Shown here piece by piece: positions 14,040 through 51,335 of a DNA stretch of 64,000 nt. The stretch lies in NCBI GenBank assembly GCA_052327205.1, contig CM126202.1, forward strand, positions 176,762,001-176,826,000. The letters run 5' to 3'. The first letter of the stretch is position 1. Each line of letters opens with the position of its first letter. Made by a program: the position numbers and the translations under genes. This stretch comes from Somniosus microcephalus (Eukaryota). The notes under the pieces are model-generated. The model had not been told where the DNA came from. It did no database searches and saw only the letters and a program-made list of their open reading frames with translations.

Positions 14040-17000
14040 TGTAAAGTCTGTGGGTTGTGCAGTTAATAAATACACAGACTTCAGAAGTAACAAACAAACA
14101 GATCTTTACTATTCGAAGGTCAGGGCGAATCTGCCCCAGCAATCCTGCCACAACACTTATATACTGGTGTGGTCACTATCGCTATTACAGTATACAGAAG
14201 CCACAAAGTAGTGCCACCCCTAAAGTAGTTCTCTTAAAGGTGAACGGTTACATACAATGGTTTCCTTAAAGGTAAACGGGTACATACACTACAATCCTCC
14301 CTTTTTAGCTTTCAACATACGAAGTCCATAGTGAACATATATTCTAGCATATATACAGGTTTATGTAAGACAGTTCATAGATTCAGTCTTTCTGGGGGTT
14401 TCCGGATTCTGTCCGGATAACGTCGCAGTGGTGTCGTCATTTCAGGCGGGCTAGGAGGTGCTTCTGGCAAGGTCGATTCGGCTTGAAAAGCCGTGTCAGG
14501 TTCAGCTGACTCCAGTATTATTAGATCGGAAGTAGGTGTTCTGGGTATCTCAGTCTCAACCTTACCCGGATGAGGTGGTGAAGTCGGTTGCCCATTTGTG
14601 GCGGACCCTATGATTTGGTCAACATGGCGCCTTATTATATTGTCTCCAATGTCCACGGTGTACATCAACGGCCCCAGCCTTTTCCCAATAGTTCCAGGCT
14701 GCCATTTCTCAGTACGGTAGTCCCGGGCCAAAACTCGTTGACCGATCTGGAAAGATCTAGTGACCCTGTCGTTCATGCCCTGGAATTGTCGGTTCTCTAC
14801 GTCTCTTCTGACATTTGGTTTTAGTAAATCCAGCCGGCATCTATTACAAAACATCATTGCGGGAGTTTGATTTTTGACCGCATGTGTTGCATTTCGGTAT
14901 GCCAACAAAAAGCTAGCCACCTTATGTTGTAGACTTATGTTTTCATTACTCATGGCCTTTACGGCCTTCTTGAAGGTCTGGACAAACCTTTCAGCCAATC
15001 CATTGGAGGCGGGATGGTATGGGGCTGACGTGTAATGTTTAACCCCATTGCACTTTAAGAATTTTTTTAATTCTTCGGACACAAATTGTGGTCCATTATC
15101 AGAACAGATCTGTTCCGGCAGGCCATTCCGAGCAAACATAGTCCTTAACACTGTGATGGTTTTTTTCCGTCGTGGCGGTGGTCATGTTAATTACTTCCGG
15201 CCACTTGGAGTGGGCATCCACCGCTATTAGGAACATCGAGTCCATAAATGGACCAGCAAAGTCGATGTGTACTCTTTGCCAAGGTGATGAGGGCCACTCC
15301 CATGGATGCAGAGGAGCCTGGGGTGGTGCGTTCTGAACCCTCTGACATCCTAGGCAGTTCTTCGTGATCTCCTCTATGTCTCCATCAATGCCTGGCCACC
15401 ACACAAACGCTCTTGCTAGATTCTTCATCTTTACTCCACCCAGATGTCCTTCGTGCAGCTCCTCTAGCACTTTCTTTTGGAGTTTGGGTGGAATCACCAC
15501 TCTAGATCCACACATCAGGGTTCCTCGACACACTGACAGTTGTTCTTTCCTCTGTGCAAATGCTTGCAGTGTTGGTTCGCTCTGTGCTGGCCATCCCTCC
15601 ACCGTTACATCATAGACTCGTGAAAGAGTCGGGTCATTCCTTGTCTCATTCTCAATCATTGAGTTTGTTATCGGTAAACACTCCACTATGGATGAGTGGA
15701 ACAACTCTACTGGGTCCACTATACTCGCTTCTTCTACCATCGGCAATGGCAAGCGTGACAACCCATCAGCATTTCCATGCTGTTTAGACCTTTTGTACTC
15801 AATTTCGTATTGGTGTGCCCCAAGTAACACGGACCACCTTTGTAACCTTTGTGCTGTCATGGTGGAAACGGCCTTATTTGGGTTGAATATGGACACCAAC
15901 GGCTGGTGGTCTGTCAGCAATGTGAACTTTTTACATTGTAGGTAATGGTTGAATTTCTTCACGCCCCACACAAGACTGAGGGCCTCCCTATCTATTTGGG
16001 CGTAATTTCGCTCCGCGGGTGTCAATGATCAGGACGCGAAAGCCACTGGCCTTTCCGAGCCATTTGGTAGCCTGTGCGAGAGTACTGCCCCAATTCCGTA
16101 CGGGGAAGCATCGCAAGCTAGACGAAGGGGTAATGCTGGGTTGAAATGAGCCAGCACTTCTTCAGAGGTAATCAACTCCTTGCTTCTGCGAAAAGCCTTT
16201 TTGCATTCTTCACTCCACTTCCATGGTGTTTCTTTCCGCAACAGGTCATTCAGCGGATGCAGCACCGTGGATAAATTTGGCAGAAACTTGTGATAGTAAT
16301 TAATCAACCCCAAGAATGATCTTAACTGTGAGACGTTTCCTGGAGCGGGGGCCTTCACGACCGCTTCTATCTTTTCAGGTGACTTATGCAGTCCCTCTCG
16401 GTCAATGACATGACCGCAGTATGAGATCCGTTTTTGGAAGAACTCACACTTCTTGCGATTAACCCGAAGGCCATACTCCTTCAACCTGGTGAGTACCAGT
16501 TTCAAATTCGTGAGGTGTTCTTCCTCATCTTTTCCCGTGATTAAAATGTCATCTAAGTAGCACTGCGTGCTTGGAATTCCTTGTAACACCTGTTCCATGG
16601 CCCTCTGCCAAATTGCTGGCGCCGAAGCTACCCCAAAGACCAGTCTATTGTAGCGATACAAGCCTCTGTGAGTGTTGATGGTGAGGTACTGGCGTGACTC
16701 TTCCTCGACCTCCATCTGTAGATATGCTTGAGCCAGATCTATTTTCGTGAAATGCTTCCCTCCAGCCAACGAAGCAAAGATATCTTCAATCCGCGGAAGC
16801 GGGTATTGTACCGTGTGAAGCACCGGATTCACAGTAATCTTGAAATCTCCGCAGATACGGACCTTCCCCGGTCCCCCTGGCTTATTACTTGGTGAGGACT
16901 TCATGACGGGAACAATGGGCGTGGCCCACTCACTCCAGTCCACTTTTGACAGAACCCCTGATCGTTCAAGTTCTTCCAGTTCTGCCTCCACAGCTGGTCG

Positions 17001-19590
17001 TATTGCGTAAGGTACCGATCTGGCCTTAAAAAACTTTGGGCTTGCATTTTCTGCAATCTTAACCTTTGCTTTAATTCCTCGCAGTGTTCCCAGTCCTTGC
17101 TGGAATACCTCCTTAGCTTCGTCCAATATTCTGGACAACCGTTCAGGTTTGACATCCTCTTTTTCGGAATCCACCGTCATGGTGTTTGGTGACTGCCAGT
17201 CCAACTTTATTTTTCGGATCCACTCCCGCCCCAGAAGTGGTGGTCCTCCCTCAGGCAATACATACAGGTCCAACCGGTGATGATCTTTATCCTTGTATCT
17301 CACCTTGACTTCTATCTTTCCGATGGGGAATACTTTGTGCCCCGTATATGTCTGTAGTACTAGTTCCGTATCCCGTAGTGGAATATGCTTGAAAATGTTT
17401 TTGTAGTCATGCTTATTCATGACCGTCAACGCCGATCCGGTGTCCACTTCCATTTTTACTTGGACCTTTGCAATCTGTAGCGTTATCCAGATAGTTTGTC
17501 GGTCAGCTTCATTGCTCACGTTGTGAATTCTCAGACTGTCCAGTCCTTTGCATTTGGAGTGTGAGACCGACTTCTGTTCCCTCAGACTCTTCTTAGTCAC
17601 CTCTTGCACCTTTCCGTACCATTTTTGGGGTGACTCCTTATTGTTGTACGTTGCTCCTGACCGGCATACCTTAGCTATGTGCCCGATCTTGCCACATTTC
17701 CTGCATTCTTGGTTTTTAAACCAGCATTGATTCTGGTCGTGTGTTGTCTTCCCACAACGGTAGCATTTTATTGTGCTTGAAGTAATTTGGTCCACCCCTA
17801 GTGCCGCCGCCTTTAGCTGCATTTCCGCCGTTCCTTTCGCTGCGGCTTCGTGCGATGCAGCTATGAGGACAGCCCTGTCCCGTGTGAGGTCATTTTCTTC
17901 CAGTAGTCGCTTCTGCGTTCCTTCTTTGGACAATCCGCATACGAACTTGTCACGCAGTGCCTCTGTCAGATTCCCTCCGAACTGGCAGTATTTCGCTAGC
18001 CTACGCAGTTCGACCAAGTATTCCGCATTGCTTTCGTCTTTCCTCTGCGTTCTTGCGTAGAATTTGAATCGTTCAGCCAGCATCAACGGTGTGGGGTTCA
18101 AGTGATCCTTCAGCACTGCTACCATATCATCGAAAGTCTGATCTGCCGGTTTAGCTGGTGAGAGAAGACGCTTCAACAACCCGAATGTTTTCGCACCCAT
18201 CATGTTAAGTAAGGTTAAAGCTTTTTCATCCTTAGCTATTTTGTTAGCCTTACAATGTATCTCAATACGTTCTACGTACGTGGCCCAGTCTTCTATCCCC
18301 GAATTGAACTCGTTGATGTCCGCCCACTTAGGCATCTTCCTTTCCTTGGGTACAACAAAAGTATTTCTTTAAGTATTCTTATTTATTTGTTTATTTCTAA
18401 GATGGCGGTTTTCCCGCGAAAATGGCGGTTTCCCGCTCTTTCCTTCTCGCCCCGCCCACTTCAATGGCGGTTTCCCGCTTCTGTCGTCTTCTCCGCCTAA
18501 TGGCGGCTTCCCGCGTTTCTTCCCGGTGGAAGGGGTACGCATCCCCCACAGCGGACAGGTTCAGCCTCTGGGCTGGCTTCCGCACAGCTCCCCTTACTCG
18601 GCTCTGTCTTTTCCTCCCGCCCGCACGGCTCTACCGGCGCTGGGTACACCCCGTTAACGGAGGACAGTTCAGCCGCTGGACTGGCTCTCGCGCAGTCTCT
18701 CTCTCCGTACCCGGCTCTGTCGCTCTCTCTCCCGCACGTTCGGTTCCACCGGCTCTGGGTACCCCGTTGGTGGAGAACAGCTCAGCCGCTGGACTGGCTC
18801 TCGCGCAGTCTCTCTCCCCTTGCTCGGCTCTGTCTCTCTCTCCCACCCGCACGGTTCCTGTTCGCCTCCCAGCCCTCTCGCAGACCGGTGTTTCCCTCCC
18901 CGGCTGCGGCTGGGTTTCTCTTCCCGCGCCTACTCCCAGTCTCAGCGCTTCGTGGCTGCGGTCGCTGCCCGGCTTTTCCCGCCGATCGAGTTCCGACTGT
19001 CTCACGACGCCGTTGGACCCGACTTTCTGACCGGCTCCGTTCCCCCTCGACCGTGGTCGAGTGCACAGCCCGTATCCTCCGGATTTCGTTACACTTTCCC
19101 CTACTCACAGTCTCCGCGGCCGCCTTGTTTCCAGCTGATCGGCTCACTCCGCACCGTGATAGAAGGGTAGTCAGTGCCTGTTGCAGATGGAAGCTTTTGT
19201 TGCTAAAGTCTTCCTCCTTCCTCCTGCTGCAGCCCCGTGTTTTCTTTCAGCAGCACGACGAGGGCGGTTGCCTCTCTTCGACGCTCTTCGTTGCTTTGGT
19301 AGTCTTGCCGCAGGGTACGATCGGACTCGTCGCCACTGTAAAGTCTGTGGGTTGTGCAGTTAATAAATACACAGACTTCAGAAGTAACAAACAAACAGGT
19401 CTTTATTTTTCGAAGGTCAGGGCGAATCTGCCCCAGCAATCCTGCCACTACACTTATATACTGGTGTGGTCACTATCGGTATTACAGTATACAGAAGCCA
19501 CAAAGTAGTGCCGCCCCTAAAGTAGTTCTCTTAAAGGTGAACGGTTACATACAATGGTTTCCTTAAAGGTAAACGGGTACATACACTACA
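14040..19590 (-). mobile_element. Gypsy LTR retrotransposon A (Mag-like), full length
   Basis: 254-bp TG..CA LTRs at 14040-14293 and 19337-19590 (6 mismatches by eye). TSD AATAT. PBS TGGCGACGAG (tRNA-Ser(GCU)-like) at 19326-19335. PPT AAAAGGGAGGA next to the 3' LTR. Confidence 0.97.
14375..18335 (-). pseudogene. gag-pol of Gypsy A (CCHC knuckles, protease, RT, RNase H, integrase), disrupted
   Basis: Motifs VDTGS, YLDD, CDASPYG, HxxHxG..CxxC, IDFAG, SDNG and NGLAERFV. In-frame TGA at 16029 and a frameshift near 15160. Confidence 0.93.
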
Positions 19591-19950: not shown

Positions 19951-20076
19951 TGTCATATGTTTACATCTCATTCCTCTGCTGAATCCATTGAAATAGCATG
20001 ATTCCAAGAGTAAATGCTGAAGATTATCCTCTTGTAGCATCTTGACCCTATGTATCCTGCCTGTATTTATATTATA

Positions 20077-22769: not shown

Positions 22770-25700
22770 TCAGTACCCTGTCCCTGCCTTCTCCCCATAT
22801 CCCTTGATCCCTTTAGCCTTAAGAAATATATCCAACTCTTTTTTGAATATATTTAATGAACTGGCCTCCACCGCCCTCTGTGGCAGAGAATTCCACAGGT
22901 TCACCACTCTCTGGGTGAAGAAATTCCTCCTCATTTCAGTCCTAAATGGCTTACCCCTTATCCTTAGACTATGACCCCTGGTTCTGGACTCCCCGGCCAT
23001 CATAAACATCCTTCCTGCATCTAGTCTGTTCAGGCCTGACAGAATTTTATAGGTATCGATGAGATCCCCTCTCAATCTTCTAAACTCCAGTGAGTATAAG
23101 CCCAATCGACACAATCTCTCCTCATACGTCATTCCTGCCATCCCAGGTATCAGCCTGGTGAATCTTCGCTGCACTCCTTCCATGGCAAGCACGTCCTTCC
23201 TCAGGTAAGGCGACCAAAACTGCACACAATACTCAAGGTGCGGTCTCACCAAGGCCCTGTACAACTGTAGCAAGACATCTTTGTTCCTGTACTCGAACCC
23301 TCTTGCTACGAAGGCCAACATACCGTTTACCTTCTTAACCGCCTGCTGCACCTGCATGCTTACCTTCAGTGACTGGTGCATAAGAACACCCAGGTCTCGT
23401 TGCACTTCCCCTTCTCCCAATGTATTGCCATTCAAATAATAATCTGCCTTCCTGTTTTTGCCACCAAAGTGGATAACCTCACATTTACCCACATTATAGT
23501 GCATTTGCCATGTTTCTGCCCAATCACCCAACCTGTCCAAATCGTACTGGAGTTTCACGACGTCCTCCTCACAGCATACCCTCCCACCCAGCTTTGTGTC
23601 GTCTGCAAATTTGGAGATATTACATCCAATTCCCTCGTCCAGATCATGAATATATATTGTGAACAGCTGGGGTCCTAGGACCAATCCATGCGGTACCCCA
23701 CTAGTCACTGCCTGCCACTCAGAAAATGACCCGTTTATTCCAACTCTTTGCTTTCTGTCCGCCAACCAGTTCTCTATCCAAGTCAATACCTTACCCCCAA
23801 TCCCATGTGCCTTAATTTTGCTTGCTAATCTCTTATGTGGGACCTTATCGAAAGCCTTCTGAAAGTCCAAATACACCACATCCACTGGTTCTCCCTTATC
23901 TATTTTACCAGTTGCATCCTCAAAAAATTCCAGTAGATTAATCAAGCTTGATTTACCTTTTATAAATCCATGTTGACTTTGTCCGATCCTGTCACTGCTT
24001 ACCAGGTGCTCTGCTATTACATCTTTTATAATAGATTCTAGCATTTTCCCCACTACCGATGTCAGGCTTACCGGTCTATAATTCCCTGCTTTTTCTCCAC
24101 CACCTTTTTTGAATAGTGGGGTAACATTAGCTACCCCCCAATGCATGGGTACTGTTCCAGAGTCTATCGAGTTCTGGAAGATGACCAGCAATGCATCTAC
24201 TATTTCTAGGGCCACGTCCTTAAGTACCCTGGGATGTAGATTATCAGGCCCTGAGGATTTATCGGCCTTCAGTCCTGATGCGCTATCAATTACTCATAAA
24301 AGACTGAGAGTTAGAAGAGTAACTAAAGGCTTTTATTAACAACAGAATGGAGGCCTGCCTCGCGTGGTCGACCGGTCCAGGGTACAAAGGGCTGGGGAGC
24401 AGTCACCTTTATACTAGGACCTGTGGGAGGAGTCAGCCGAGGCATGTCCAGGCATGTACACAGTGGAATACAAACAGGACAAACAGGAATACAAACAGTG
24501 GTTTACCACATTCACCCCTTGTTTAAAATTGAGTCCGGCGGGGTGAAGTGTATTAAAAGTTAGTGTATTGGAGCCTCTCCGGAGGTCTTGTCTGCCGCTG
24601 TGATCTGCGTGGCGACGGCAGGGGTAGTGAAGCTTCCGGCGTCGAGTCCAGCGTAGGCTGTGGCACAGGCGTGTCGTCCTCGTAGATGTCGAGCGGGTCG
24701 CGGGGCCCAGGCCTGCCGTCTGCTGGGGCTGGATATTGGATCGTGGGGGGGGGTGGTAGTGGGTAGTGGGTTACTGCGGCCCCCGAGGGTGCAAGGTCTC
24801 TTATGGAGACTGTGTCCTCCCGCCCGTCCGGGTATGCGATGTAAGCATACTGGGGGTTGGCGTGGAGGAGGTCGACCCTCTCGACCAGGGGGTCCGTTTT
24901 ATGGGTCCTCACGTGTCTTCTCAGTAGGACCGGCCCTGGGGACGTCAGCCATGGCGGTAGCGATGTCCCCGATGTGGACTTCCTTGGGAAGACAAACATT
25001 TTCTCATGAGGGGTGGCGTTAGTGGCAGTGCAGAGCAGTGACCGAATAGAGTGGAGCGCATCGGGGAGCACATCCTGCCAGCGGGAGGTTGGAAGGCCCC
25101 TAGACTTTAAGGCTAGCAGGACGGCCTTCCAAACTGTCGCATTTTCTCTTTCCACCTGTCCGTTCCCCCGGGGGTTGTAACTGGTGGTCCTGCTTGTGGC
25201 AATACCCCTAGTTAGCAGGTACTGACGGAGTTCGTCGCTCATAAACGATGAGCCCCGGTCGCTATGGATATAGCTCGGGAAGCCGAACAGGGTGAAGAGG
25301 TTGTTCAGACATTTAATGACCGTGGCACTGGTCATGTCCGGGCAGGGGAAGGCGAACGGGAAACGGGAGTACTCATCAATAATATTGAGGAAGTACACAT
25401 TGCGGTCGGAGGAGGGGAGAGGCCCTTTAAAATCGACGCTCAGGCGCTCGAAGGGGCGAGTGGCTTTTATCAGGTGGGCCCTGTCTGGTCTATAAAAGTG
25501 CGGTTTGCACTCAGCGCAGACTTGGCAGTTCCTGGTCATGGTCCTGACCTCCTCAATAGAGTAAGGCAGGTTGCGGGCCTTGATGAAGTGGAAGAACCTG
25601 GTGACCCCCGGGTGGCAGAGGTCATTGTGGAGGGCCCGCAGTCTATCGATCTGCGTGCTGGCGCAGGTGCCACGCGATAGCGCATCCGGGGGTTCATTTA

Positions 25701-28700
25701 GCTTCCCGGGCCGGTACAAGATCTCGTAGTTGTAGGTGGAAAGTTCGATTCTCCACCTCAAGATCTTGTCATTTTTGATTTTGCCCCTCTGCTTGTTGTT
25801 AAACATAAAAGCAACTGAACGCTGGTCAGTGAGCAGGGTAAATCGTTTTCCGGCCAGGTAGTGCCTCCAATGACGCACAGCCTCCACAATCGCCTGGGCC
25901 TCCTTCTCAACAGCGGAGTGTCTGGTCTCCGGGCCTTGGAGGGTTCGTGAAAAGAAGGCCACGGGTCTCCCCGCCTGATTGAGGGTAGCGGCCAGGGCAA
26001 AGTCAGACGCGTCGCTTTCCACCTGGAAGGGGATGGATTCGTCCACTGCGTGCATGGTGGCTTTGGCAATGTCCTCCTTGATACGGTGGAAGGCTAAGCG
26101 GGCCTCTGCCGTCAAGGGAAAAAAGGTGGACTTGATCAGCGGACGGGCCTTGTCCGCATAGTAGGGGACCCACTGGGCGTAATAGGAGAAAAACCCTAGG
26201 CACCTCTTCAGGGCCTTGAGGCAGTGGGGCAGTGGAAGTTCCATAAGGGGACGCATCCGGTCGGGGTCGGGGCCGATGACTCCGTGTTCCACAACACAGC
26301 CAAGGATGGCGAGGCGGTTTGTGCGGAATATGCACTTCTCCTTGTTATATGTCAGGTTTAGGAGTTGGGCGGTGCGGAGGAATTTTTCGAGGTTTGCGTC
26401 ATGGTCCTGCAAGTCACGGCCGCAGATGGTCACATTGTCCAGATATGGGAAAGTGGCCTGCAACGCATTTTGATCTACCATCCGGTCCATCTCCCTTTGG
26501 AAGACGGAGACCCCGTTGGTGACGCCAAAGGGAACCCTAAGGAAGTGATAGAGGCGGCCGTTTGCCTCAAAGGCAGTGTACTGGCGGTCCTCAGGGCGGA
26601 TGGGGAGCTGGTGGTACGCTGATTTCAGGTCAATGGTCGAGAAGACGCGGTACTGCGCGATCTGGTTGACCATATCAGCTATACGGGGGAGTGGGTAGGC
26701 GTCCAGCAGGGTGTAGCGATTTATTGTCTGGCTGTAGTCGATGACCAGGCGCTGCTTCTCGCCGGTCTTAACGACCACAACCTGGGCTCGCCAGGGGCTG
26801 GTGCTGCCCTCAATAATCCCTTCTTTCAGGAGCCGCTCCACTTCGGTTTTAATGAAAACCCTGTCCCCGGCACTGTATCGCCTGCTCTTTGTGGCGATGG
26901 GCTTACAGTCGGGGGTGAGGTTAGCAAACAGTGGGGGGGGGGTGACTCTGAGTGTGGAGAGGTTGCACCTGGTGCGCGGCGGGCAGTTTGGAAGCTGCTG
27001 GCTGCGGACTGTGAGTGGGGGTAGGGGTCCACCGTACGCCATCGTAACACTTTTAAGGTGGCACTGAAAATCTAACCCCAGCAGGACGGCAGCGCAGAGG
27101 TCAGGCAGGACCAGAAGTTTAAAATGATCGTACACGGTCCCGTCTACTACGAGTGTCACCACGCAGTAGCCGCCGATGTCCGCCGACTGGGACTCGGAGG
27201 CCATAGAAATCCGCTGTTGCGCAGGCAGGACTGGGAGAGAGCAACGCCACACCGTGTCGGGGTGGATGAAGCTCTCCGTGCTCCCAGAGTCAAAAAGGCA
27301 GATTGTATCGTGACCATTTACCTTAATGTCCATTGTGGAACTGGCCAGTTGGTGCGGTCTCGCTTGGTCCAGTGTAACGGATGCCAGCGTAGGGGTCGGT
27401 GTGTCGCTGCAGGTATCAGATGAGGCGGTGTCGGGGGCCTGCTGCGTCCCGGCTGTCGTCCAAGATGGCGGCGTCCATGATCCCCATGTGGCTGGAGGCG
27501 TCCAAAATGGCTGCTGTACCGATGATTCGCACATGGCCGGGGAGGTCCAAGATGGCGGCCCGCATGGCCCACACGCGGCGCTGCTGGGGTTCGGGGTGGC
27601 TTTGGCCCTGCAGATGCTAGCGTAGTGTCCCTTCTTCCCGCAGCCCGAGCAGATCGCGTTTTTCGCCGGGCAGCGCGCTCTGGGGTGTTTTGCCTGGCCA
27701 CAGAAGTAGCATTTCTGGCCTTGGGGCACTGCTGTCTGGCCTTGGGACACTGCTGCGGTAGTTGGGCCGTTGTTGGGGTGTGGCTGGGGTGGCACGGCGC
27801 TATGAGGCGGTCCTACCGTGTCCCAGGCTGTCATTCCCCGCGGCGTCCACGGTGCAGAGGAGTAGGCATCCATGCCCTGGTAGGCTGCATCCAACGATAG
27901 TGCGAGTTCAGAGGCCTTGTTGAGGTCGAGGTTACTCTGCTCCAACAGCCGCTGTCGGGTGTAATTGGATCTGTGGCCCGCTACAAAAGCGTCCCGGATA
28001 AGTTCCTCTGTGTACACGGCGGCCTTTACATCCTTACAACCACAGGCCCGGCCAAGCACAGACAGTGCCTGAAGGTATTCCACGGTCGATTCCCCAGGTT
28101 GTTGTTTACGACTCCCCAGGAGGTGCCTGGCGTACACTTCGTTCACTGGGCGCGTGTACTGGTCCTTGAGGAGCTTGATAGCGTCCGCGTACGAGGTCGC
28201 GTCTTGGATGACCGAGTACACTCGGTGGTTCACTTTGGAGGTCAGGACATCCAGTTTGTCCTTGTCCGATTTGATTGCTTCGGAGGCGGTCAGGAATTTT
28301 TCGAAACACTTAAGCCAGTGAGTAAACTTGGTGGATGAGTCCGCCTCCCGATGATCTAAGTCCAGGCATGCTGGTGTGAGGATCTTCTCCATTATAAAAA
28401 TGTTGTTAATAAAATTGATGCGCTATCAATTACTCATAAAAGACTGAGAGTTAGAAGAGTAACTAAAGGCTTTTATTAACAACAGAATGGAGGTCTGCCT
28501 CGCGTGGTCGACCGGTCCAGGGTACAAAGGGCTGGGGAGCAGTCACCTTTATACTAGGACCTGTGGGAGGAGTCAGCCGAGGCATGTCCAGGCATGTACA
28601 CAGTGGAATACAAACAGGACAAACAGGAATACAAACAGTGGTTTACCACAAGTCCCATCAATTTTCCTAACACCATTTCCCTACAAATACAGATTTCTTT

Positions 28701-31798: not shown

Positions 31799-34700
31799 TG
31801 TGATATCCGAGTGGTAAGGTCCGAAACTGAGAGAAGCGAGATATTAGGAACAAAACCCAACTGTTTATTTACACGGTGTAGCAGAGAGACATAGCTCTTA
31901 CAAGCTGGAAGCCAGGCACATCATTCTTACTGCACGAGCCAAGATGGAGGATGAACCTCTGAGTCATACCCATAATGCAATGCCACATTACCGTGTTAAC
32001 TGGTGTACCAGGATATTGAATACATGACCCATTACCTTAAATACTGGTGAATGTGAACCCTTAATATTTGGCCCCATCTGGTGGATAACTTAAACATTAC
32101 ATCCCAGATTACTATATCCCTCCCCTCTTAAGTTGAACATTAATTTCTTAACAACATTCTTAAAAAGTCCCATAAGGAAACTCCTTTAACGATAGTCCAT
32201 ACTGAACAAATCTAGCAGGTCGTTATCAATCTCTCTGGTGGCTTGTGAGACCTTGGTGAACGTCTTACAGTCAAGTCCCTGTTTGGTTGTGGTAGAGCTA
32301 CCTGCTGCTCCTGAGCAGTACTCAGAGTATCTGACTCTGCTACGCTGGTTTCCTCTTGACGAAGGGGTCCAGGTGGAACAAGCTCTGTTCGTGGTGGTGG
32401 TACCACTGATGCATTTGGATAACTGGGGCCCAACTTGTCCTCCAACATCTCCTCTGGAACCTCCATTTCGATCTCCCCTTGTCTGGTCAGTATCTGATCT
32501 ACATGTCTGCGTACTACCTGACCAGTTCCCACCATGACCGTGTATGATACTAGACCGGTCATTGAGTCTATGATGCCAGGAATCCATTTTGGACCATAAC
32601 TGAAATTCCTGGTAAGGACCGAATCTCCTTCTCCAAAACTGCGGCTCTTTGTCCTTCTGTCATGGTTCTCCTTTTGTTTGATTTGTCGGTTTTCTACCTT
32701 CCTTTTTAGGTCTGGGTGAACCAGGTCAAGAGTGGAGCGTAGTTGACATCCTAACAACAGCTCAGCAGGAGAGAGTCCTGTGGTAGATTGAGGTGTTATT
32801 CTGTAGCTGAACAGAACTCGTGACACCTTGGCTGCCAAACTCCCTTCCGCACTTTTTTTCATCATCTCCTTAAATGTTTGTACGGCTCTCTCCACAAGTC
32901 CATTTGAAGACGGATGATATGGAGCTGAGGTCACGTGCACTATGCCATTGTTTCTCATGAACTCTTTTGTTTCTGTACTCACAAAACACGTGGCATTGTC
33001 ACTTACTACGATCTCCGGTAGCCCTTGATTACTAAAACTCCTACACAGGCAGTCTATAGTAACAGTAGATGAAGCAGAATTTACAGGATAAACATCCATC
33101 CATTTGGAATGGGCATCAATGATTATGAGGAACATCTTTCCCATGAATGCACCCGCATAATCTACATGTAATCTTCTCCATGGTTTATCCGGCCACTCCC
33201 AGGGGTGGAGAGGAGCCGCTGCTGGTGCCTTCCTGTGTACTTGACAAGTTCTGCATGTCTTGACTAGATTTTCTATCTCCTCATCTAGCTTTGGCCACCA
33301 CAAGTAACTCCTTGCCAAAGCTTTCATATGTGAAACTTCAGGATGACACTGATGTAGTTGCCCTAGGAAAGACTGTCGTGCTGACTGTGGAATAATCACT
33401 CGTGCTCCCCACAACACGCAACCATCCTGCACACACAGCTCTGTCTTCCTGACACTGTAAGGTATGAAATCAGTCCCTTCCGGATGCTGTGGCCAACCCC
33501 TCATCACATATTCTCGGACTCTAGACAGTACTGGATCTTTACCGGTCCATGTCCTTACCTGTTCAGCGGTCACAATTGCCGTGTCCGTGTCCTCCAACAT
33601 CAAAACTCTGTCCTCTGGAGCTGCATGGATAGGTGTACCTGGCAGTGGAAGACGGCTCAAGGCATCTGCGTTCCCATGGTACTTGCCCGCCTTGTAAACG
33701 ATGACATACTCATATGCCCTCATCGTCACTGCCCACCTCTGGATCCGGGGTGACACCATCTGTGGTACTGCTTTCATTTCATTAAAAAGAGATAGAAGAG
33801 GTTTATGATCGGTGCATATGGTGAATTTCCTGCCATATATGTACTTGTGAAACCTCCGTAACCCAAACATTACTGCTAACCCCTCTTTATCTAACTGGGA
33901 ATAGTTTTTTTCTGCTGGTGTCAGAGTTCGAGACATAAACCCTATTGGTCTTCCTGTTCCATCTTCCAAGCTGTGTGAAAGAACCGCCCCCACCCCGTAA
34001 GGTGAAGCATCACAAGAGAGAATGATGGCTTTCTCTGCATTGTAGTGAACCAGCACATCCGAGGACAGCATCAGTTTCTTGGACTGCTCAAATGAAACCC
34101 TCTGTTCCTCTTCCCACTGCCACTGTGTCACCTTGTGCAGATGTTTGTGAAGAGGTGCTAACACTGTTGCCAAGTTTGGTAAAAATCTGTTATAATAGTT
34201 TAGCAGTCCCAGGTAAGCTTTTAACTCAGTCACATTGGTAGGAGCTGGGGCCTCCTGCAGTGCTTGTACCTTCTCCTTGATTGGAAGGAGCCCGGTGGTG
34301 TCCACTCTGTGTCCCAGGAACACAGCCTCATTCCCCAGGAAAGTGCACTTACTCCTCTTGAGCCGTAACCCAGCCTTATCCAATCTTCGTAGTACCTCTC
34401 TCAGAGTGCTCAGATGCTCCTGGTCGGTTCTTCCCATCACCAGAATGTCATCCAGATAGATTGAAACATGTGGGATCCCTTGCAGTACACCCTCGATAGT
34501 CCTCTGGAAAATAGCTGGACTAGATGAGACACCGAATGGTAAGCGGTTATAGGTGAACAAACCCTTGTGTGTATTTATGGTTACATACTTCTTGGATTCC
34601 TCATCTAGTGTAATCTGCAAGTATGCATGACTCATATCCAGCTTCGTGAATTTCTTCCCTCCAGCCAGGTTTGCAAAGAGATCCTCTGTTTTGGGAATAG

Positions 34701-36636
34701 GATACTGTTCTAGTTTAGACACCCTATTTACTGTCAATTTATAATCTCCACAGAGTCTTACCGAATTGTCCAGTTTTAAAACAGGTACAATGGGAGCTGC
34801 CCATTCTGAACATTTCACGGATTCCAGTATGTTCTCTCTCAAAAGACGGTCAAGCTCATCCTCTACCTTCGGTTTCATGGCATACGGCACAGGTCGTTGT
34901 GTAAAAAACCTTGGCAATGCCTCCTTGTCTACATAAATCTTAGCTGGGGGGCCATTAAATGTGCCAAGTTCTTCCTTGAACACGTTCTTATGTTCAATCA
35001 ACACTTCTTGCAAAGACAACTGTTTGCCTCCCTCTATTTGATTTATTGCTCCCCAATCTAATTTAAGTTCTTGTATCCAGCCCCGACCTAACAGGTTTGG
35101 TCCGGAACCTGATACTACAACTACAGGTAGCTGTTCCACGGTGTCCCTGTGTTGCACAGTTACAGTAGCTGTACCCAATGTCGCCACTCGTTCACCGGTA
35201 TATGTTTTAAGCTGCATAGAGCAAGACTTTAACTCTGGAACTTTTGCACGGTTCCACAACTTTGAGTACTCCTCCCTGTTCATTATGGTTACCCCGCATC
35301 CTGTATCCTCTTCAAAGTTGACCTTAGAGTCATTTACTATCAGTTGCAAAGTGATAGGATCCACTTTTGGAATGTTCTCTACCATACTATGCATTATGAA
35401 CATGTCATCTTCTTTCTCAGCTTCTCCGCTGATGTGATGAGCTCCCTGTTTTTTCACTTCTCTTCCTAGGTTTTGCTTTCCTCCCCCTTTTGGTTTATAT
35501 GCCTCCACGGTTGCTTTTGCCCTGCATGCACGTTTTATATGCCCTTTTTTCCCACACTTGTGGCACTTTTCCTCCAGAAACCTGCATTCCCTCGCCAGGT
35601 GATTGCCATTGCATCTATAACATGCCTCCACATGCTCATGTTGTGGTTTCTGACACATATTTAACTTGTACACAACAACCTGACCTGCAACTTGCTTTGT
35701 AGTAGCCCAGTCGGAACCTTGTATTTCTTTTACATCTCGGTTTGCTGTCTCTATGGCTTGAGCAAGTTCCAATGCTTTTTCATACGTAAGCCCAGTCTCA
35801 GACAATAATCTCTGCTGCATTCGATCATCCATTATCCCGCAAACTAGCCTATCTCTGAGCATGTCTTTCAGGTTGTTGCCGTAATTGCAATCGTGTGCCA
35901 ATTTCCTCAACACCGCTACATAATCCAATACAGTCTCTCCCGGCTTTCTGTTCCGTGAATTAAATTTGAAATGCTGTACCATCTCACTCAGTCTGGGATT
36001 GAAATGGTCCTTCAGCAAGGCCACTAAGTTAGCAAATGATCTGTCTCCAGGCTTTTCAGGACTGCATAAGTTTCTCATTAAACTATACGTCTGACTTCCC
36101 ACGGAAGTGAGCAAAATAGCTCTCCTTTTTCCGAGATCAATTATATCATTTGCTTCAAAGAAATGCATCAACACCTCGCAGTATTCATCCCAGGTCTGCG
36201 TCTGAACATCAAAAGCAGAGATCTTTCCTACCGTAGCAGCCATGATCTGTTATTCAGTGCTCTTTTTCCTTTTGTTTTCTTCGTCAAGATGTGATCTGTT
36301 TATCCTCGTCGCCAATATGTGATATCCGAGTGGTAAGGTCCGAAACTGAGAGAAGCGAGATATTAGGAACAAAACCCAACTGTTTATTTACACGGTGTAG
36401 CAGAGAGACATAGCTCTTACAAGCTGGAAGCCAGGCACATAATTCTTACTGCACGAGCCAAGATGGAGGATGAACCTCTGTGTCATACCCATAATGCAAT
36501 GCCACATTACCATGTTAACTGGTGTACCAGGACATTGAATACATGGCCCCATTACCTTAAATACTGGTGAATGTGAACCCTCAATATTTGGCTCCATCTG
36601 GTGGATAACTTAAACATTACATCCCAGATTACTATA
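31799..36636 (-). mobile_element. Gypsy LTR retrotransposon C (Mag-like), full length
   Basis: LTRs at 31799-32116 and 36318-36636 (about 7 substitutions and 1 indel). TSD ATGAT. PBS TGGCGACGAGGAT (tRNA-Ser(GCU)-like) at 36302-36314. PPT AGAGGGGAGGGA. Confidence 0.97.
32212..36243 (-). CDS. Uninterrupted gag-pol polyprotein, 1343 aa
   Basis: Motifs CYRC/CHKC knuckles, DTG, YLDD, CDASPYG, HHCC, VDYAG, SDN and NGLVERAV. Confidence 0.95.
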   Translation of the reverse strand: MAATVGKISAFDVQTQTWDEYCEVLMHFFEANDIIDLGKRRAILLTSVGSQTYSLMRNLCSPEKPGDRSFANLVALLKDHFNPRLSEMVQHFKFNSRNRKPGETVLDYVAVLRKLAHDCNYGNNLKDMLRDRLVCGIMDDRMQQRLLSETGLTYEKALELAQAIETANRDVKEIQGSDWATTKQVAGQVVVYKLNMCQKPQHEHVEACYRCNGNHLARECRFLEEKCHKCGKKGHIKRACRAKATVEAYKPKGGGKQNLGREVKKQGAHHISGEAEKEDDMFIMHSMVENIPKVDPITLQLIVNDSKVNFEEDTGCGVTIMNREEYSKLWNRAKVPELKSCSMQLKTYTGERVATLGTATVTVQHRDTVEQLPVVVVSGSGPNLLGRGWIQELKLDWGAINQIEGGKQLSLQEVLIEHKNVFKEELGTFNGPPAKIYVDKEALPRFFTQRPVPYAMKPKVEDELDRLLRENILESVKCSEWAAPIVPVLKLDNSVRLCGDYKLTVNRVSKLEQYPIPKTEDLFANLAGGKKFTKLDMSHAYLQITLDEESKKYVTINTHKGLFTYNRLPFGVSSSPAIFQRTIEGVLQGIPHVSIYLDDILVMGRTDQEHLSTLREVLRRLDKAGLRLKRSKCTFLGNEAVFLGHRVDTTGLLPIKEKVQALQEAPAPTNVTELKAYLGLLNYYNRFLPNLATVLAPLHKHLHKVTQWQWEEEQRVSFEQSKKLMLSSDVLVHYNAEKAIILSCDASPYGVGAVLSHSLEDGTGRPIGFMSRTLTPAEKNYSQLDKEGLAVMFGLRRFHKYIYGRKFTICTDHKPLLSLFNEMKAVPQMVSPRIQRWAVTMRAYEYVIVYKAGKYHGNADALSRLPLPGTPIHAAPEDRVLMLEDTDTAIVTAEQVRTWTGKDPVLSRVREYVMRGWPQHPEGTDFIPYSVRKTELCVQDGCVLWGARVIIPQSARQSFLGQLHQCHPEVSHMKALARSYLWWPKLDEEIENLVKTCRTCQVHRKAPAAAPLHPWEWPDKPWRRLHVDYAGAFMGKMFLIIIDAHSKWMDVYPVNSASSTVTIDCLCRSFSNQGLPEIVVSDNATCFVSTETKEFMRNNGIVHVTSAPYHPSSNGLVERAVQTFKEMMKKSAEGSLAAKVSRVLFSYRITPQSTTGLSPAELLLGCQLRSTLDLVHPDLKRKVENRQIKQKENHDRRTKSRSFGEGDSVLTRNFSYGPKWIPGIIDSMTGLVSYTVMVGTGQVVRRHVDQILTRQGEIEMEVPEEMLEDKLGPSYPNASVVPPPRTELVPPGPLRQEETSVAESDTLSTAQEQQVALPQPNRDLTVRRSPRSHKPPERLITTC

Positions 36637-38157: not shown

Positions 38158-41100
38158 TGACGTAATAAAACTCACTACGCACTTGGTTTGAGCATAAAGG
38201 AAGGCTTGAATCAACTTGTTTCAGAACATGGAGGTCTAGTTGTACTTCACTAGTTCCTTGTCTTACAAAATGTCCCTGGAAAGCTGGGCCCACGCCCGAG
38301 CATTTATACTCCTTGGACGGCGCCACCAGCTGGCCATCCAGCATTATTTCATGAGTAGTTTCTTGATGATGATGAGATTTAGAACATTCTTCCTGCCTAA
38401 AAGATTTGGAAGTCCAACGACTTCCTCTTAACGGATTAGGCAGACCACAAATAGCCGCAGTCTTTTAGATTTTTATTTATGGCTCGAAGGCATGTCTCTC
38501 CAGACCATGTCTTGGTCCCTGGGCCGCTTGATTCATACCAGTGGATCGACAGGGCCCGCGTTGCTCTGACCGACCCGAGGGAGGCCGGGGAGATCGTGAC
38601 TCTGAGCACGGGTCCCCACAGGCGCAGAACTAGCTTCATCCTGTTTGATAGCCAGGGATTGACCGGCGTCCTTGCTTCGGGTGGCCATCCCACGGGGAGT
38701 GCTCAGCTCCCTGAGTGGATCCGGTGGGGCAGCTGGCAGCTCTCTCGATGTCCCAGGTAGGGCATCATCTTCGGGGGAGTGCAGAGTGTCGGCATCATCC
38801 CCGTGGGTCCCTCTATCAGTTGGGTCCGTGGAACCAGCTGGACAGGGTGCCAGGTCCCGGAGCGAAACGGTGGACTCCCGGCCATCAGGGTACCGCACGT
38901 GCGCGTACGTGGGATTGATGTCCGTGAGTTCTACCTCGTCGACGAGAGGATCATTTTTAGACGATCGAACGAAACTTCGGAGTAGCGCGGGGCCGGGAGC
39001 TGCCAACCATGACGGTAGAGACGTCCCATGGGTGGAGCGACGCTGGAAGCTGAAGAATCGTTCGTGAGGCATGACATTGGTAGATGTAGAATGGAGAGAC
39101 CTGATGGAATGCAACACGTCAGGGAGCGTAGTTTCCCACTGCTGGTCTGTTAGGTTGCGTGACCTCAGCGCAAGACAAACAGCGTTCCAAATGATAGTGT
39201 TGTATCTCTCAACCTGTCCGTTACTGATGGGATGGTACGGTGTCATTTTACTTGTGGCGATTCCCCGTTGGGAGAGATAACTTTTGAGTTCGCTTGACAT
39301 GAAGGAGGGACCCCGATCAGAGTGGATGAAATTGGCCGTACCGCAAAGGGAAAAGACTTGATCAAGGCATTTGATCACTGTGGAAGTAAGCATATTGGGA
39401 CAGGGGAAAACAAAGGGAAAGCATGAATATTCATCCACCATATTCAGTAAGTAGGTGTTTTGCATTGAGGAAGGCAATGGCCCTTTAAAGTCAATGCTGA
39501 GTCGCTGCATAGGCTGCATTGCGTGTATGAGTGAGCCATCCGATGGATGGAAGAATTGCAGTTTTAATTCCGCACAAATTCTACAGGAGGAGCACGTTCT
39601 TTTCACATCTTCCATAGAAAATGGGAGATTTTTAGATCGCACAAAGTGCAACATACGGGTAACGCCAGGATGGCATAAGTCAGTATGAAGATCCGCAAGA
39701 GTCGAAGTTGATATGGAAGAGCAGAATGCCCGCGTGAGGGTATCCGGGCCCACACTCTCTTTGCCGGGTCATAGAATCATAGCATGGTTACAGCACAGAA
39801 GGAGGCCATTCGGCCCGTCGAGCCCGTGCCGGCTCTCTGCAAGAGCACTTCAGCTAGTCCCACTCCCCTTTCCCCGTAGCTCTGCAAATTTTTTTCCTTC
39901 AGGTACTTATCCAATTCCCTTTTGAAAGCCATGATTGAATCTGCCTCCACCACCCTTTCAGGCAACATATTCCAGATAATGTATGGTGTATCCAAAGGCG
40001 GCCAATTCCATCCTCCAGAGTTGTATTTTGTTATTCTTGATCTTAGTGCGTTTCCGGTTATCCAGCATAAAGGCCGGGGAGCGCTGATCGGTTATAAGTG
40101 TGAAATGGCGACGAGCGAGAAAATGACTCCATTTACATACAGCTTCGATGATGGCCGTAGCCTCCTTCTCGACAGGAGGATAATGGAGCTCGCTACCCTG
40201 CAAAGTTCTGGACAGAAATGCAACGGGTCGACCACCTTGATTCAATGTAGCAGAGATTGCCACATCCGATGCATCGTACTCGACCACGAAAGGAAGATTT
40301 TCATCAACGGAACGAAATGTGGCTTTTTCCAGTTGTCGCTTGAGGAGGTTGAAAGCTGAAATAGCCGTTGCCTCCAATGGAAATGACTTTGCGTGAAGCA
40401 GGGGCTGGATCTTGTCGGAGAAGTGGGGTATCCATTTCGCATAATAGGCGAAGATGCCGAGTGCCCGACGAAGAGAGACAAGATTCGTAGGGGGAGGGAG
40501 CTCCTGAAGCGAATGAAGTCGCTCCGGATCTGGTTTAATGACACCGTTGCCCACCCAGTAGCCAAGGATGTTGACTGATGGTACTGATTTCACAGATTTG
40601 GACTCATTTAAGGTTAAGTTGCGACGACGGAGAACATCAAAAAGTTTCTGGAGATTGGCATCATGCTCCTTCTGGTCATGCCCAGCAATGGTGATATTAT
40701 CCAGATATGGAAAAGTGTCCGTTAAGTTCTCCTGTTTGACTAGGCTATCCATTGCCCGTTGTAAGACGACCACCCCATTGGTGACCCGAAATTGAAGGCG
40801 ATAAAACTGGCAAAGCCGACTATTGGCCTCAAAGGCCGTATACATTTTGTCAGAGTGCTTTAATGGGTACTTGATGATATGCGCTCTTTAAATCAAAGGT
40901 TGAAAATACCTTGTAGTTAACAAAGTTATTGACCATGTCATCGATGCGTGGTAGTGGGTAGGCATCCAGGTCAGTATACTGGTTAATAGTCTGCGAGTAA
41001 TCGATGCAAAGATGTTTCTTGTGTTGCTTCAGATGATTTTTGACAACGACGACTTGAGCCCGCCAGGAAGATGAACATGGCTCAATGATACTGTCAGCTA

Positions 41101-42955
41101 GAAGGCGAGAGATTTCTGCCTCGATAAAGGACCGATCATCTTGGCTGAAACGTCATGATTTAGTGACTATGGCTTACATCGGGGGGAAAGATTGGCAAAC
41201 AAGGAGGGCTCGTCGAGCGAAGCCGCCGAAAGCGCACTAAACGGTACTTTGGAAATAGTAAGCTCCGGCTTTGACCCTCCAAACTCGAAAGTGAGTCTTT
41301 TGTGTTGTTTCTGGAAATCCTGTCCCAGGAACACATCACTACATAGGTTCTTGAGCACCCCAAGCCGGGTGGAGAAATAAGTGTGGCCATAGAGAATAAG
41401 GTCGACAAGACAAAACCTGGAAGAATTGGTGGTCAGTGTCGTCAGAGCCATTGCAATTTCCCTGTCTGAGGGGTAAATACGCAGTTTTAACTTCCTGACA
41501 GCCCGCTCACTAATGAAGCTGTCAGAGCTGCATGAGTCGATTAGTGCACTCAAAATGTGTCCATTTACTGAAACCTTTGTGGCTGCATGGGACAGACTTT
41601 GGGGAAAAACAGCTGTGATGGGAGGAGGGGCAGTTTTACCCTTGACAGCTGTAACCTTAGTAGTGCTTCTTGGGGGAGGAGAAGTTTTATAGATTGCAGC
41701 TGTAACCTTAGTTGTGGCTCTTGGGGGAGGAGCAGTTTTATAGATAGTAGCTGTAAAACTAACAGGAGCTCTCGACCGGTATACCTTAGAAAAGTGGCCT
41801 TTCTTACTAACAGCGGCTCTTGACTGGCATACCTTAGAAAAGTGACCTTTCTTGCTGCAATGATTGCAGGTTGCGTTATGAGCAGGACAACATTTCCTAT
41901 AATGGAATGCACCCCCACAGAAGAAACACTTCCTTCCAGATTGCCAAGATGCCGCTAGGGCAGGGTCATCATCAGTGTAGTTTTCTAGGGTAGGGTTGTC
42001 ATCAGCCAGGTTGGAGTCGTCATCCATGAGGGCTTCCGCCCGAGGCCTATCGAAGGAGTCACTAAAAGTGATAGCAGCAGCCCATGCATGTGGTGAAAGA
42101 TAGGTATCTGCATTTCTCTTTGCTAAGTCCAGAGAACATGCCTGGTCATAGGCAGCCTGTAACATAAGGGTTTTATTCTCCAATAGATGCTGATGTTTGA
42201 AGGGAGACGCAATTCCATTAATAAAGGAATCACGAATTAACTCCTCCTGGTACTGCTCAGCTGTAACAGCTTTAAGATTACAATCCTTGCTGAGCCTGCG
42301 AAGTTTCTGAAGGAATTCATCAAGTGATTCCCTGGGTTGTTGTTGAGTTGTGGCCAGTAGATGCCGAGCAAAAATTTAATTTGGGGACTTGACATATAGC
42401 TGCTGTAGTATTTGGATAGCGGCATCATAGTCTACACAGCCTTCGATATAATCAAACACATGAGGGGATACATAATTAGCAAGCATTCGTAAATTGTTAG
42501 GAACATTCTCACCACACTCCTCAAGGAAGTTGCTAAAGGTATGATACCAGTGTTTCCATACCTTAGCAGCTGTAATTGAATTCGGGTCCAGGTCGAGACG
42601 AGTGGGTCTGAGCAGTTTCTCCATGATGGATCGATTACTTGTCTGAGTTCCCTTCTATAGTTCGAGTCATAGCTGGCTGTTCCCGAAATCACCTAAAGCA
42701 TGGAGTCGATATCAAGTTGATTAAATTGACGTAATAAAACTCACTATGCACTTGGTTTCAGCATAAAGCAAGGCTTTAATCAACTTGTTTCAGAACATGG
42801 AGGTCTAGTTGTACTTCACTAGTTCCTTGTCTTACAAAATATCCCTGGCAAGCTGGGCCCACGCCCGAGTATTTATACTCCTTGGGCGGGGCCACCAGAT
42901 GGCCATCCAGCGTTATTTCATGAGTAGTTTCTTGATGATGATGAGATTTATAACG
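38158..42955 (-). mobile_element. Gypsy LTR retrotransposon D (same lineage as B), decayed
   Basis: 229-bp LTRs at 38158-38386 and 42727-42955 (about 13 mismatches). TSD TAACT. PPT AGGCAGGAAGAA. Gag start MEKLLRPTRLDLD, RT YLDN, integrase IDFKG/HSDRG. Frameshifted. No tRNA PBS. Confidence 0.95.
39770..39975 (-). mobile_element. 5'-truncated CR1 3' end inserted in the pol gene of Gypsy D
   Basis: Encodes WNMLPERVVEADSIMAFKRELDKYL and carries the CR1 3' stem-loop and tail. It splits the pol motif YTIHY|RPGK. Confidence 0.85.
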
Positions 42956-44297
42956 TAACTCATGCCTTTACTCTCCCACAGGACCATTGAGTGCCGCCCT
43001 CCTCACTGTCCAGGAGGAAGAGCCAGATGACTCCTCAGAGGAACCTGCGGCCTCTGGGGAAGCAGCATCACCAGGACTCAGTGCACCCAGAACCAACGGA
43101 CAGACGCACACCTCGGTGGGGCCATCGCGAGTTAGAGTAGTGTTGTCACCTGGTGTATCACAGCTCATAAGTAAGCATCAGCAGATGGTGGAGACAGCGA
43201 CAGCAGTGGAGAGTCTTCGTCAGAGGTCGCAGGACTCTCCTAGCTCTGCTCAGCTGCATGCAGACCCTGTGCCTCTGGGGCCATCCAGAAAGAGAGTGGT
43301 GCTGGAACTCCAGGAACAAGTGCAGGAGTTGCTGACAGGGTTTGCATCCAGGGTAACTGTGAGTGTGCAGAGAATGGAGGAGTCCATCTCTAACATGAGC
43401 ATTGCCTTTGTGGGGGCAATAGTGCATGAACGTTCTGCCATGGAGAGGGTGGCAACCTCCATGGAGGACATAAATCGCCAGACTAACGAAAACATGGTGA
43501 CTCTTCAAAATAGATTGTCTGCTAAGGAGGAGAGATGTACATCTATTGAAGAGAGACACCAGAGCTTCATGGACGTCCTTGTTATGAGGACTTCCAGTAC
43601 AGATAAGGGTCCTCATGAACCCCCTGATGTGCAGCAAGGTGCTCTCCAACCACTTGCTAGCACTGAAGTGCAGCTGATCCATGAAAGGGATGTTGGTGGC
43701 AGACAACAAGGAAGTGTGGGCTCCTCGCCAAGTGCTCACACGACCATGTCACTGTGGAGCCTTCGCTCAGAGACCCACATTGCACACCCAACTGAGATGG
43801 CCGTTTCAGCCCCTGAACAGCTGCAGGGAGAGTAGACTGTTTCAGAGACCTCTCATGCTCCCAAACCCAGAGGACGCCCACCAAAGGCATCTAAGTAGGC
43901 GCAGCATCAAAGTCAGCAAGGTGCCTCTACATCTGCTGAAGCCACAGGGGAAGCACCATGTAGAAGCATGCGTAAGAGGAAGATAAAGCACAAATAGTCA
44001 CAAGGGGAGTCACTTGGGTGTTTTGTTCTGTTGTCTTTGGTTCTGTTTAATATTTTGCAATGTCATCCTTTTGTGAATGTATTAAACAAAAGTGATGGCA
44101 AACAGTTGAAGTTCTAGCCTATGTGTTCTGGGAAATGGAAGTTGCACATTGAGGGCTCAGGGCGACTTGCATTTGTACTGAAGGTGGTGAAAGTGATAGG
44201 AAAGAACCGGTTATTGCAGAGATGATGTATGGCGTTGTAGGAAGATCGTCTACACATTCATAGCCATATGCTAGCCACCTGTGGTTGAAGAGTAAGC

Positions 44298-45560
44298 TTA
44301 CGTGAATCTGGCATGAATGAGTGCATCCCTTGCGTGACGGTCAGCAGTGAGCTCGAGGGCCACTGCATTGGTCACATCCGGACCCGCAAGGCGCGCCTCC
44401 TCCTCGTCCTCATCCCCGTCCTCATCCTCGTCCTCCTCATCATCTTCCTCCTCTTCTTCCAAGGATGCTCTGCATTGAGCCACTTGTTCCTCATGGAGCA
44501 CTAAGCCACGCTGCTGTGCCTTGTTGTGCAGGGCATAGTAGACGATGATGATTCTGGAGACCCTGACTGGTACATACTGCAGGGCTCCACCAGATCTGTC
44601 GAGGCATCTGAATCGCATTTTGAGAGAGCCGATGGTTTGTTCGCTGATGCTTCTGGTGGAAATGTGGCTCACATTGTACTGCTCCTCAGCCTCGTTTGAT
44701 GGCCTCCTCATCGATGTCATGAGCCACTTTTTCAGGGGATAGCTCTTGTCGCCAAGTAGCCATCCGGAAAGTTGGTTTGACGGATAGAAGAGCTAAGGCA
44801 CAGTAGACTGCCGCAGGATGAAGGAGTCATAGCAACTGCCAGGGTACTTGGCGCAAACAAGTATGATGATGTTCCTGTGGTTACACACCAGCTGGACGTG
44901 AAGGGAGTGGAAGCCCTTGTGGTTGATAAAATCAGCTGGGTTGTGATGGGGTGCCCTAATGGCCACATGTGTGCAGTCTATGGTGCCCTGCACCCTTGGG
45001 AAGCCTGCCATATTTGCAAAGCCAACCACACACGCGGTTACACTTGCTTCATCCATGGAGAAGTGGATGTAATTGTGCACCTTTGCAAAGAGGTCATCGG
45101 TAACCTGCGTGATGCAAGTGTGTGCAGCCGACTGGGAGATTCCGCTGATGTCTGCTGATGATCCCTGGAAGGAGCCCGAAGCAAAGAAGCTGATTGTGGT
45201 GGTGACTTTGACAGCCACTGGGAAGGACTGTGCACACGCTCCTCCGGGCTCCAGGTGTTGGTGCAGCATTGCGCAGATGTCAGCGACTACCTCTCACGAA
45301 AGTCTCAGCCTCCTTTGGCACTGCTGCTTACTCATGTTGAGGAAGCTCATCCTCTGCCTGTAAACCCTGTGTTGGGGGTATCTCCTGTGGTGAGGTGCAG
45401 GCCTGCGCTGACGCCCTCTGCCCTGTGCAGCATCAGGTGAATGAGGAGAAAGTTGGCGCTCCTGTTGTTGGTGCTGCTGCTGTGCCTGGTTGTGGTGCTG
45501 CTGCAGCTGCTTTTGTCTAAATCTGACGACCAGGATGAGAGGATACAAATGGTTCCCATA
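44298..45560 (-). pseudogene. Harbinger transposase, disrupted
   Basis: Motifs [27 protein letters not shown] and [15 protein letters not shown], with a Gln-rich N-terminus. Stop codons and frameshifts. Confidence 0.9.
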
Positions 45561-51134: not shown

Positions 51135-51335
51135 CTCTATTACAAACTTTCACATCTATCTCTATTTTATTGGCATTATTTTCAGTGCTCTTCTTAATGT
51201 TTCTCTCTTTTTTTTCGAAGGTGCAGCCACACATCTTTCTATAATTGGACAGCCTTTATAGAAAGCCACAGAGAATCTATAGAGTAGATTTGCCAGGATG
51301 ATAACTGGAGATGTCAAACTATCAAGAAAGCTTAA

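Follow-up and report, generated by a model that had tools for sequence, protein, structure and literature searches.

To our knowledge, self-priming, in which a retrotransposon starts reverse transcription with its own RNA and not with a tRNA, has been proven only for Tf1 of fission yeast, and it is assumed for the chromovirus kin of Tf1 and a few plant groups. In Tf1, the RNA's first 11 bases pair with the primer site and are cut by RNase H (PMC7175516), and the cDNA contains a copy of the self-primer (PMC11042837). Tj1 of S. japonicus, a relative of Tf1, is likewise described as self-priming (PMC4600332), and a chromodomain together with a three-duplex 'pretzel' are given as features of the Tf1/sushi group (bioRxiv 2022.12.06.519325). 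Self-priming has also been predicted from complementarity between LTR and primer site for the plant elements Tcn1 (Gypsy) and TAR/Houba (Copia) (PMC6317226), and Skipper is reported to have neither a tRNA site nor LTR complementarity (PMC5006619). In retroviruses (HIV-1, MLV, mouse ETn/MusD) one strand of the site receives a copy of the primer, so that both versions are inherited 50:50 and variants scatter over the tree, and in Ty1 and Ty3 the site is passed on strictly as it was in the parent (PMC7472051); primer copying is therefore not general among retrotransposons.

The window (the whole 64-kb stretch of DNA analysed) contains four Gypsy elements, A to D, all on the minus strand; each of them is bounded by two LTRs and has a target duplication of 5 bp. 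The Ty3/Gypsy hallmarks TG...CA ends, target duplication and polypurine tract were found, with the exception of the D 5' LTR, which opens with CG (copies of the D family open with TG), and the domain order protease-RT-RNase H-integrase is that of Ty3/Gypsy elements, Ty3 being the nearest solved relative. Element D is laid out as follows:

42956-42960 and 38153-38157: target duplication AGTTA (42960-42956 and 38157-38153)
42727..42955, minus strand: 5' LTR of D, 229 bp, ending CA, first base C (T in family copies)
42870..42877, minus strand: TATA-like box, some 90 nt upstream of the arm, a candidate promoter element by sequence
42775..42787, minus strand: LTR arm CAAGTTGATTAAA, its last six bases being the poly(A)-signal variant ATTAAA; putative self-primer
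42727..42774, minus strand: loop from the arm to the LTR end, 48 nt, beginning GCCT
42713..42725, minus strand: primer-binding position TTTAATCAACTTG, 1 nt (42726) past the LTR end, without TGG
38533..42624, minus strand: gag-pro-RT-RNaseH-IN region, in pieces
41167-42375, 39958-40887 and 38533-39768, minus strand: coding pieces for Gag/protease, RT/RNase H and integrase, respectively
38387..38398, minus strand: polypurine tract
38158..38386, minus strand: 3' LTR of D, with an arm copy at 38218-38206 that carries one change (ATTCAA)

The two LTRs of D (42955-42727 and 38386-38158) are identical at 216 of 229 positions. As an initial annotation of this DNA had claimed, TTTAATCAACTTG (42725-42713), which follows the LTR after a 1-nt spacer, is the perfect 13-base complement of CAAGTTGATTAAA (42787-42775) on the minus strand; a match of this length was reached in 0 of 3000 dinucleotide shuffles of the LTR, and both primer site and arm were kept in all 20 D-family loci fetched. 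The helix is present in the predicted minimum-energy and centroid folds (whole-region z -1.7), and a domain search of the D coding pieces gave no match to a chromodomain. On sequence grounds, we judge the pairing in D to be real and functional. The elements with which D was compared are the following:

28416..28650, minus strand: 5' LTR of B, 235 bp, of which 234 are identical to the 3' LTR (24510-24276); target duplication GGACT
28471..28484, minus strand: LTR arm of B, TGTTGTTAATAAAA, containing AATAAA
28401..28414, minus strand: primer-binding position of B, TTTTATTAACAACA, the 13th base being the subfamily-switching site
24553..28392, minus strand: Gag-Pol of B, one frame of 1279 codons with protease, RT, RNase H and integrase
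14040..19590, minus strand: A, control Gypsy element with a TGG-type site at 19335-19326, outside the B/D clade
31799..36636, minus strand: C, control Gypsy element with a TGG-type site at 36314-36304, outside the B/D clade

The pairing of B spans 14 bp in the layout seen in D, again 1 nt past the LTR end, in agreement with the shared geometry previously proposed; it was matched in 0 of 3000 dinucleotide shuffles and is present in the predicted minimum-energy and centroid folds (whole-region z -3.6). The B Gag-Pol matched neither a chromodomain nor an envelope domain in the domain search. A and C, which had been put forward as internal controls with ordinary sites, served as such: their primer sites begin with TGGCGACGAG, which we take to be of the tRNA-Ser type, and their best LTR/site matches are only 5 bp, at chance level (805/3000 and 2129/3000 shuffles). 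The statement that the LTRs of B and D share little sequence needs an amendment, as short motifs are common to both, namely AGACCTCCA before the arm, AAAGCCTT after it and GTATAAA upstream. No tRNA genes were found within the 64-kb window, and the Rfam search gave just three sub-threshold snoRNA matches, which is chance level. In the B fold, CTCCAT upstream of the arm also formed a helix with the start of Gag, and the two stretches are complementary in D; we make no claim for this helix, as it was not evident in the other families inspected and was absent from the wider fold.

Among the best 7998 candidates scored against the B polyprotein, about 97 relatives showed 36-72% identity, followed by a drop to mostly ≤33%; the hosts of these relatives include rays, a catshark, cnidarians, a ctenophore, an isopod, moths and a sea cucumber. 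Judged by the closest named proteins, the host of the window is likely a cartilaginous fish. No chromodomain was found among the clade proteins listed (P0002-P0098), and chromodomain-bearing matches share ≤33% identity with the B/D clade. In a quick, unrooted IQ-TREE analysis of RT-RNase H with SH-aLRT support only (78 of 136 rows used), B, D and 14 other self-pairing loci formed one side of a branch with a support of 100 and a length of 2.04 changes per column. The RT phylogeny that had been suggested as a check thus groups B and D against A and C, which group together (99) apart from the B/D clade. Six rows bearing a chromodomain or Tf2-SH3 domain also fall outside the clade; these six matches are the chromovirus references in the tree, which holds no named Tf1, sushi or Cigr-1 sequence. 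Within the clade, B and D are not sisters and share 54% identity over RT-RNase H. By its sequence, D belongs, in decayed form, to a Gypsy clade that extends across animals and lacks a chromodomain. The host genome contains more than 50,000 first-look Gag candidates for this clade; in IMG/VR, no relative was found. Cigr-1 is a compact single-frame element of a size similar to B. The Cigr-1/Tor2 groups (RepeatMasker class Gypsy-Cigr) are reported from tunicates and molluscs (PMC6238403), and would be a candidate placement for the B/D clade. The name Saci2 was considered for the clade and rejected, since Saci2 is described as tRNA-primed (PMC12471100).

Outside the window, a metagenome set of 80 loci was kept, of which 27 had junctions with a Gag anchor and enough upstream DNA. 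Twenty-three of these 27 junctions showed 11-19 perfect pairs in the same register, and of the four non-pairing ones, two were copies of pairing families that had decayed and two had doubtful anchors. For the counts that follow, 22 representatives were picked after the pairing had been seen, so that 23/27 is the unselected figure. The arm of the clade is 12-19 bases long, ends in AAA and, across all lineages examined, complements a site 1 nt past the 5' LTR in the same register; in nearly all cases it is followed by (G/A)CC, and the LTR ends in CA, followed by one base and then the site. A TGG or other primer site was found in 0/22 representatives. The overlap of the arm with a poly(A) signal, which the initial annotation had pointed out, is common and not universal, with AATAAA or ATTAAA lying within the arm in 14/22 representatives and absent from it in 8/22, two of which have a signal downstream. 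The distance from arm to site is 20-67 nt for the 5' copy. Three families of the shark genome have a TATA-like box 70-90 nt upstream of the arm, which makes it unlikely that the RNA begins with the arm, as it does in Tf1. The folds of the loop vary by family, with a variable hairpin often directly after the arm; a shared second and third duplex, as in the 'pretzel', was not seen.

Among 19 distinct 13-base arms, taken from the metagenome families and the families of the host genome, the 3' end of the arm lies opposite the site's first base. Watson-Crick pairs are formed at pairs 1-12 in 18-19 arms, at pair 13 in 18 and at pairs 14-16 in 11-14, and chance level is reached by pair 17. Pairs 1-3 are always A-T and pair 10 is always G-C, and the remaining pairs vary, with up to four pair types. 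Arms paired with their own partners at 8.9 of 9 variable positions and with the partners of other families at 5.0, and none of 342 cross-family combinations of arm and site was complete. The two strands therefore covary, as had been claimed; the further claim that such covariation marks a selected RNA structure is supported with a refinement, since selection on structure alone is not required if the site is rewritten from the arm (see below). A distant family of another host (L044, L045, L062 and L086) has a 13-base arm and site identical to those of D and an RT on a different branch from D, and one copy of this family (L056) carries a compensated change on both strands.

Family B comprises two subfamilies, B1 and B2. 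Over 1.7 kb they are told apart by 20 scored sites, including arm pair 13, where the difference is compensatory (arm G/site C in B1, arm T/site A in B2). Counted genome-wide by exact sequence patterns, the host genome contains 1785 B2-type sites, 5099 B2-type arms and at most 1635 B1 junctions. The B2 LTR pattern had 132 genome matches, and the site carried the B1 base in 97 of the 100 matches listed (about 128 copies in all). The opposite class, B1 LTRs followed by the B2 base, comprises 11 copies, nine of them clean and two being tandem neighbours with a different gag marker. The background per site is 0.069% for C>A and 0.044% for A>C, which would yield about one copy in each discordant class. 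Ten of 117 junctions were dropped because they were poorly aligned, truncated or carried a third base; in 37 of the 39 well-aligned discordant copies, the flanking markers 52 nt upstream and 122 nt downstream were unchanged. Site and gag were swapped together in 1/39, and template switching, which predicts many such joint swaps, was rejected as the cause of the site-only swaps. Sub-lineage markers of B1 straddling the site are linked to each other (r2 0.55, one class absent) and the site to neither (r2 0.00 with both), and in B2 the downstream markers are linked at r2 0.56-0.80 and the site at 0.00-0.01. On trees, the state of the site showed no clustering (in B2, 18 changes compared with 17.3 after shuffling; in B1, 7 compared with 8.2), the within-subfamily trees being weakly resolved and the samples enriched in discordant copies by design.

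The site of B has thus been rewritten independently of its neighbours and between the two arm-matching bases, as primer copying predicts. These patterns, seen at one variable position in one family (B), indicate that the arm serves as the primer and that its sequence is written into the site in the course of reverse transcription. C>A at pair 13 lengthens an A run and could be a mutational hot spot, which would weaken the B1 class but leave the A>C class untouched. Uncompensated parents, with templating in cis, also account for the B2 class, so the case for trans priming rests on the 9-11 B1 copies. Half of the B1 copies that carry a B2-type U5 would be expected to switch at the site; in a tiny sample, three of three retained the B1 base. 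Site discordances in the D family were rejected as a templating signal and attributed to CpG decay; the D family is uninformative in this respect because its variable pair is a CpG. Rare B1/B2 mosaics were also found, in three of which (L153, L334, L335) only a short patch at and just before the arm was swapped and in three others (L332, L333, L336) only U5. In all six mosaics the break point falls after arm pair 13 and before U5 base 15, at the predicted primer cut, which is suggestive, though the copies are too few. A third B sub-lineage (L237, L240, L255) combines a B2-type arm and site with a B1-type U5 and has its own gag markers. Some B elements are arranged in tandem (L338-L340 on G000 C175; other pairs 4.14 kb apart) at a spacing of one element minus one LTR; integrase-independent tandem insertions have been described for Tf1/Tf2 (PMC11042837).

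The reading that we favour, with a probability of about 0.68, is that the D clade primes reverse transcription with its own RNA and not with a tRNA, in a Tf1-like manner but as a non-chromovirus. The arm in the 5' R region would fold onto the primer site and be cut directly after AAA, before the conserved (G/A)CC, presumably by the element's own RNase H by analogy with Tf1, and its 3'-OH would be extended through the 1-nt spacer and then U5. Plus-strand synthesis would copy the primer back into the site, so that a mismatch between primer and site would be inherited as either base, and at low frequency the primer may be supplied by another RNA, packaged together with the first and belonging to a sister subfamily. 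In most families the unpaired arm in the 3' LTR would provide the poly(A) signal, while pairing may mask the 5' copy. A wider version, which we hold only tentatively and would not bet on as a whole, is that tRNA-free priming arose in a large and ancient Gypsy clade of animals, separately from Tf1, when a poly(A) signal was turned into a primer. The released arm would then be an exchangeable primer RNA that trans-primes sister subfamilies and rewrites their site, arm and site would coevolve by templating and not by paired mutation, and the helix would silence the 5' poly(A) signal.

Self-priming could alternatively involve the 3' copy of the arm, if the 3' R end were cut after AAA and annealed to the site, circularising the RNA, with the 3' end of the genomic RNA itself as the primer. 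A poly(A) signal within the arm (14/22) would put the arm close to the RNA's 3' end, where it is free, the TATA-like box 70-90 nt upstream places it within R and not at the cap, and the site-only swaps in B fit either copy; the 5' copy, however, is separated from the site by just 20-67 nt and is predicted to fold onto it, and the Tf1 precedent is a 5' copy (PMC7175516), so that we regard priming by the 3' copy as unlikely. A purely regulatory helix, which would hide the poly(A) signal of the 5' LTR or join two RNAs while another RNA primes, seems similarly improbable. Its attraction is that the partner strand is present only behind the 5' LTR, which would make silencing selective, and that 14/22 arms hold the hexamer, but 8/22 arms lack AATAAA/ATTAAA (two of them with a signal downstream), the representatives have no alternative primer site, a primer would require the fixed 1-nt register at the LTR end and an occluder would not, and site-only swaps with unchanged flanks would be left unexplained. 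Regulation may nevertheless be a second role of the helix beside priming.

That the site binds a host RNA, such as a tRNA half or another small RNA, with an incidental LTR match and with site-only changes produced at a mutation hot spot, we consider very improbable. Half-tRNA priming does occur in some Copia groups (PMC6317226) and the sites are AT-rich; against this, 19 site sequences match their own arms with 0/342 full cross matches, the LTR match was reached in 0/3000 shuffles, and the B site switches both ways between exactly the two subfamily bases. The covariation in particular largely refutes priming by a host RNA.

Compared with the described systems, the B/D clade resembles Tf1/Tf2, Tj1 and the Tf1/sushi group in that it has no tRNA site and a site complementary to its own 5' LTR (PMC7175516, PMC4600332, bioRxiv 2022.12.06.519325). 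It would work like Tf1 but falls outside the Tf1/sushi group, as it has no chromodomain and forms an RT clade separate from the six chromodomain- or Tf2-SH3-bearing rows in the quick tree (SH-aLRT 100). Whereas the Tf1 primer consists of the first 11 bases, the arm of the B/D clade is 13-16 nt long, ends in AAA and usually holds a poly(A) signal, and it is probably internal to R and not at the RNA start. Plant Tcn1 and TAR/Houba belong to other hosts and lineages, and the accessible text of PMC6317226 mentions neither a poly(A)-signal overlap nor templating evidence for them. The tRNA-primed Gypsy groups (the Mag-like A and C, Saci2, CsRn1) differ in their TGG-type site, which is present in 0/22 representatives of the B/D clade. 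The site variants of B scatter like those of retroviruses, in which the template is a host tRNA; by analogy, the template here would be the element's own arm or that of a sister subfamily.

If the favoured reading is correct, a separate and very successful animal clade is added to the self-priming elements, and these would be independent of the tRNA supply and without a tRNA-type site that tRNA fragments could target. Primer copying into the site would also explain how perfect complementarity was kept across deep time. New here is the use of site-only swaps as evidence that the arm is probably the primer, which offers a means of identifying an element's priming RNA by genome sequence alone. 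No description of self-priming in this animal Gypsy clade was found in the literature searched, which mostly excluded subscription journals, so that an earlier notice is possible there and in Repbase too.

GC-rich inserts were found in U5, at the same position and independently, in 9/30 loci of the L035 family (L183, L185, L189, L197, L199, L202, L204, L207 and L210) and 1/30 B loci (L162). Those seen with both ends have the inverted ends GGCCTAGAAATT and GGGCTAGATTTT and are accompanied by a 3-bp duplication; the inserts push arm and site apart. The inserts are likely target-specific PIF/Harbinger elements, and their insertion site presumably resembles the zebrafish Harbinger target. Within the window, Harbinger-type DDE_Tnp_4 transposase frames lie at 12353-13318 and 44298-45293 on the minus strand, and related short repeats at 51326-51455, 61964-62078, 63160-63267 and elsewhere. 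Element B sits inside a CR1-type LINE (22669-24275 and 28554-30900, minus strand), which it splits; frame 1 of this LINE encodes a GDSL lipase/esterase domain and frame 2, the one split by B, an endonuclease and an RT. GC-rich tandem repeats at 18401-21479, partly within element A, flank an N stretch at 20448-20669.
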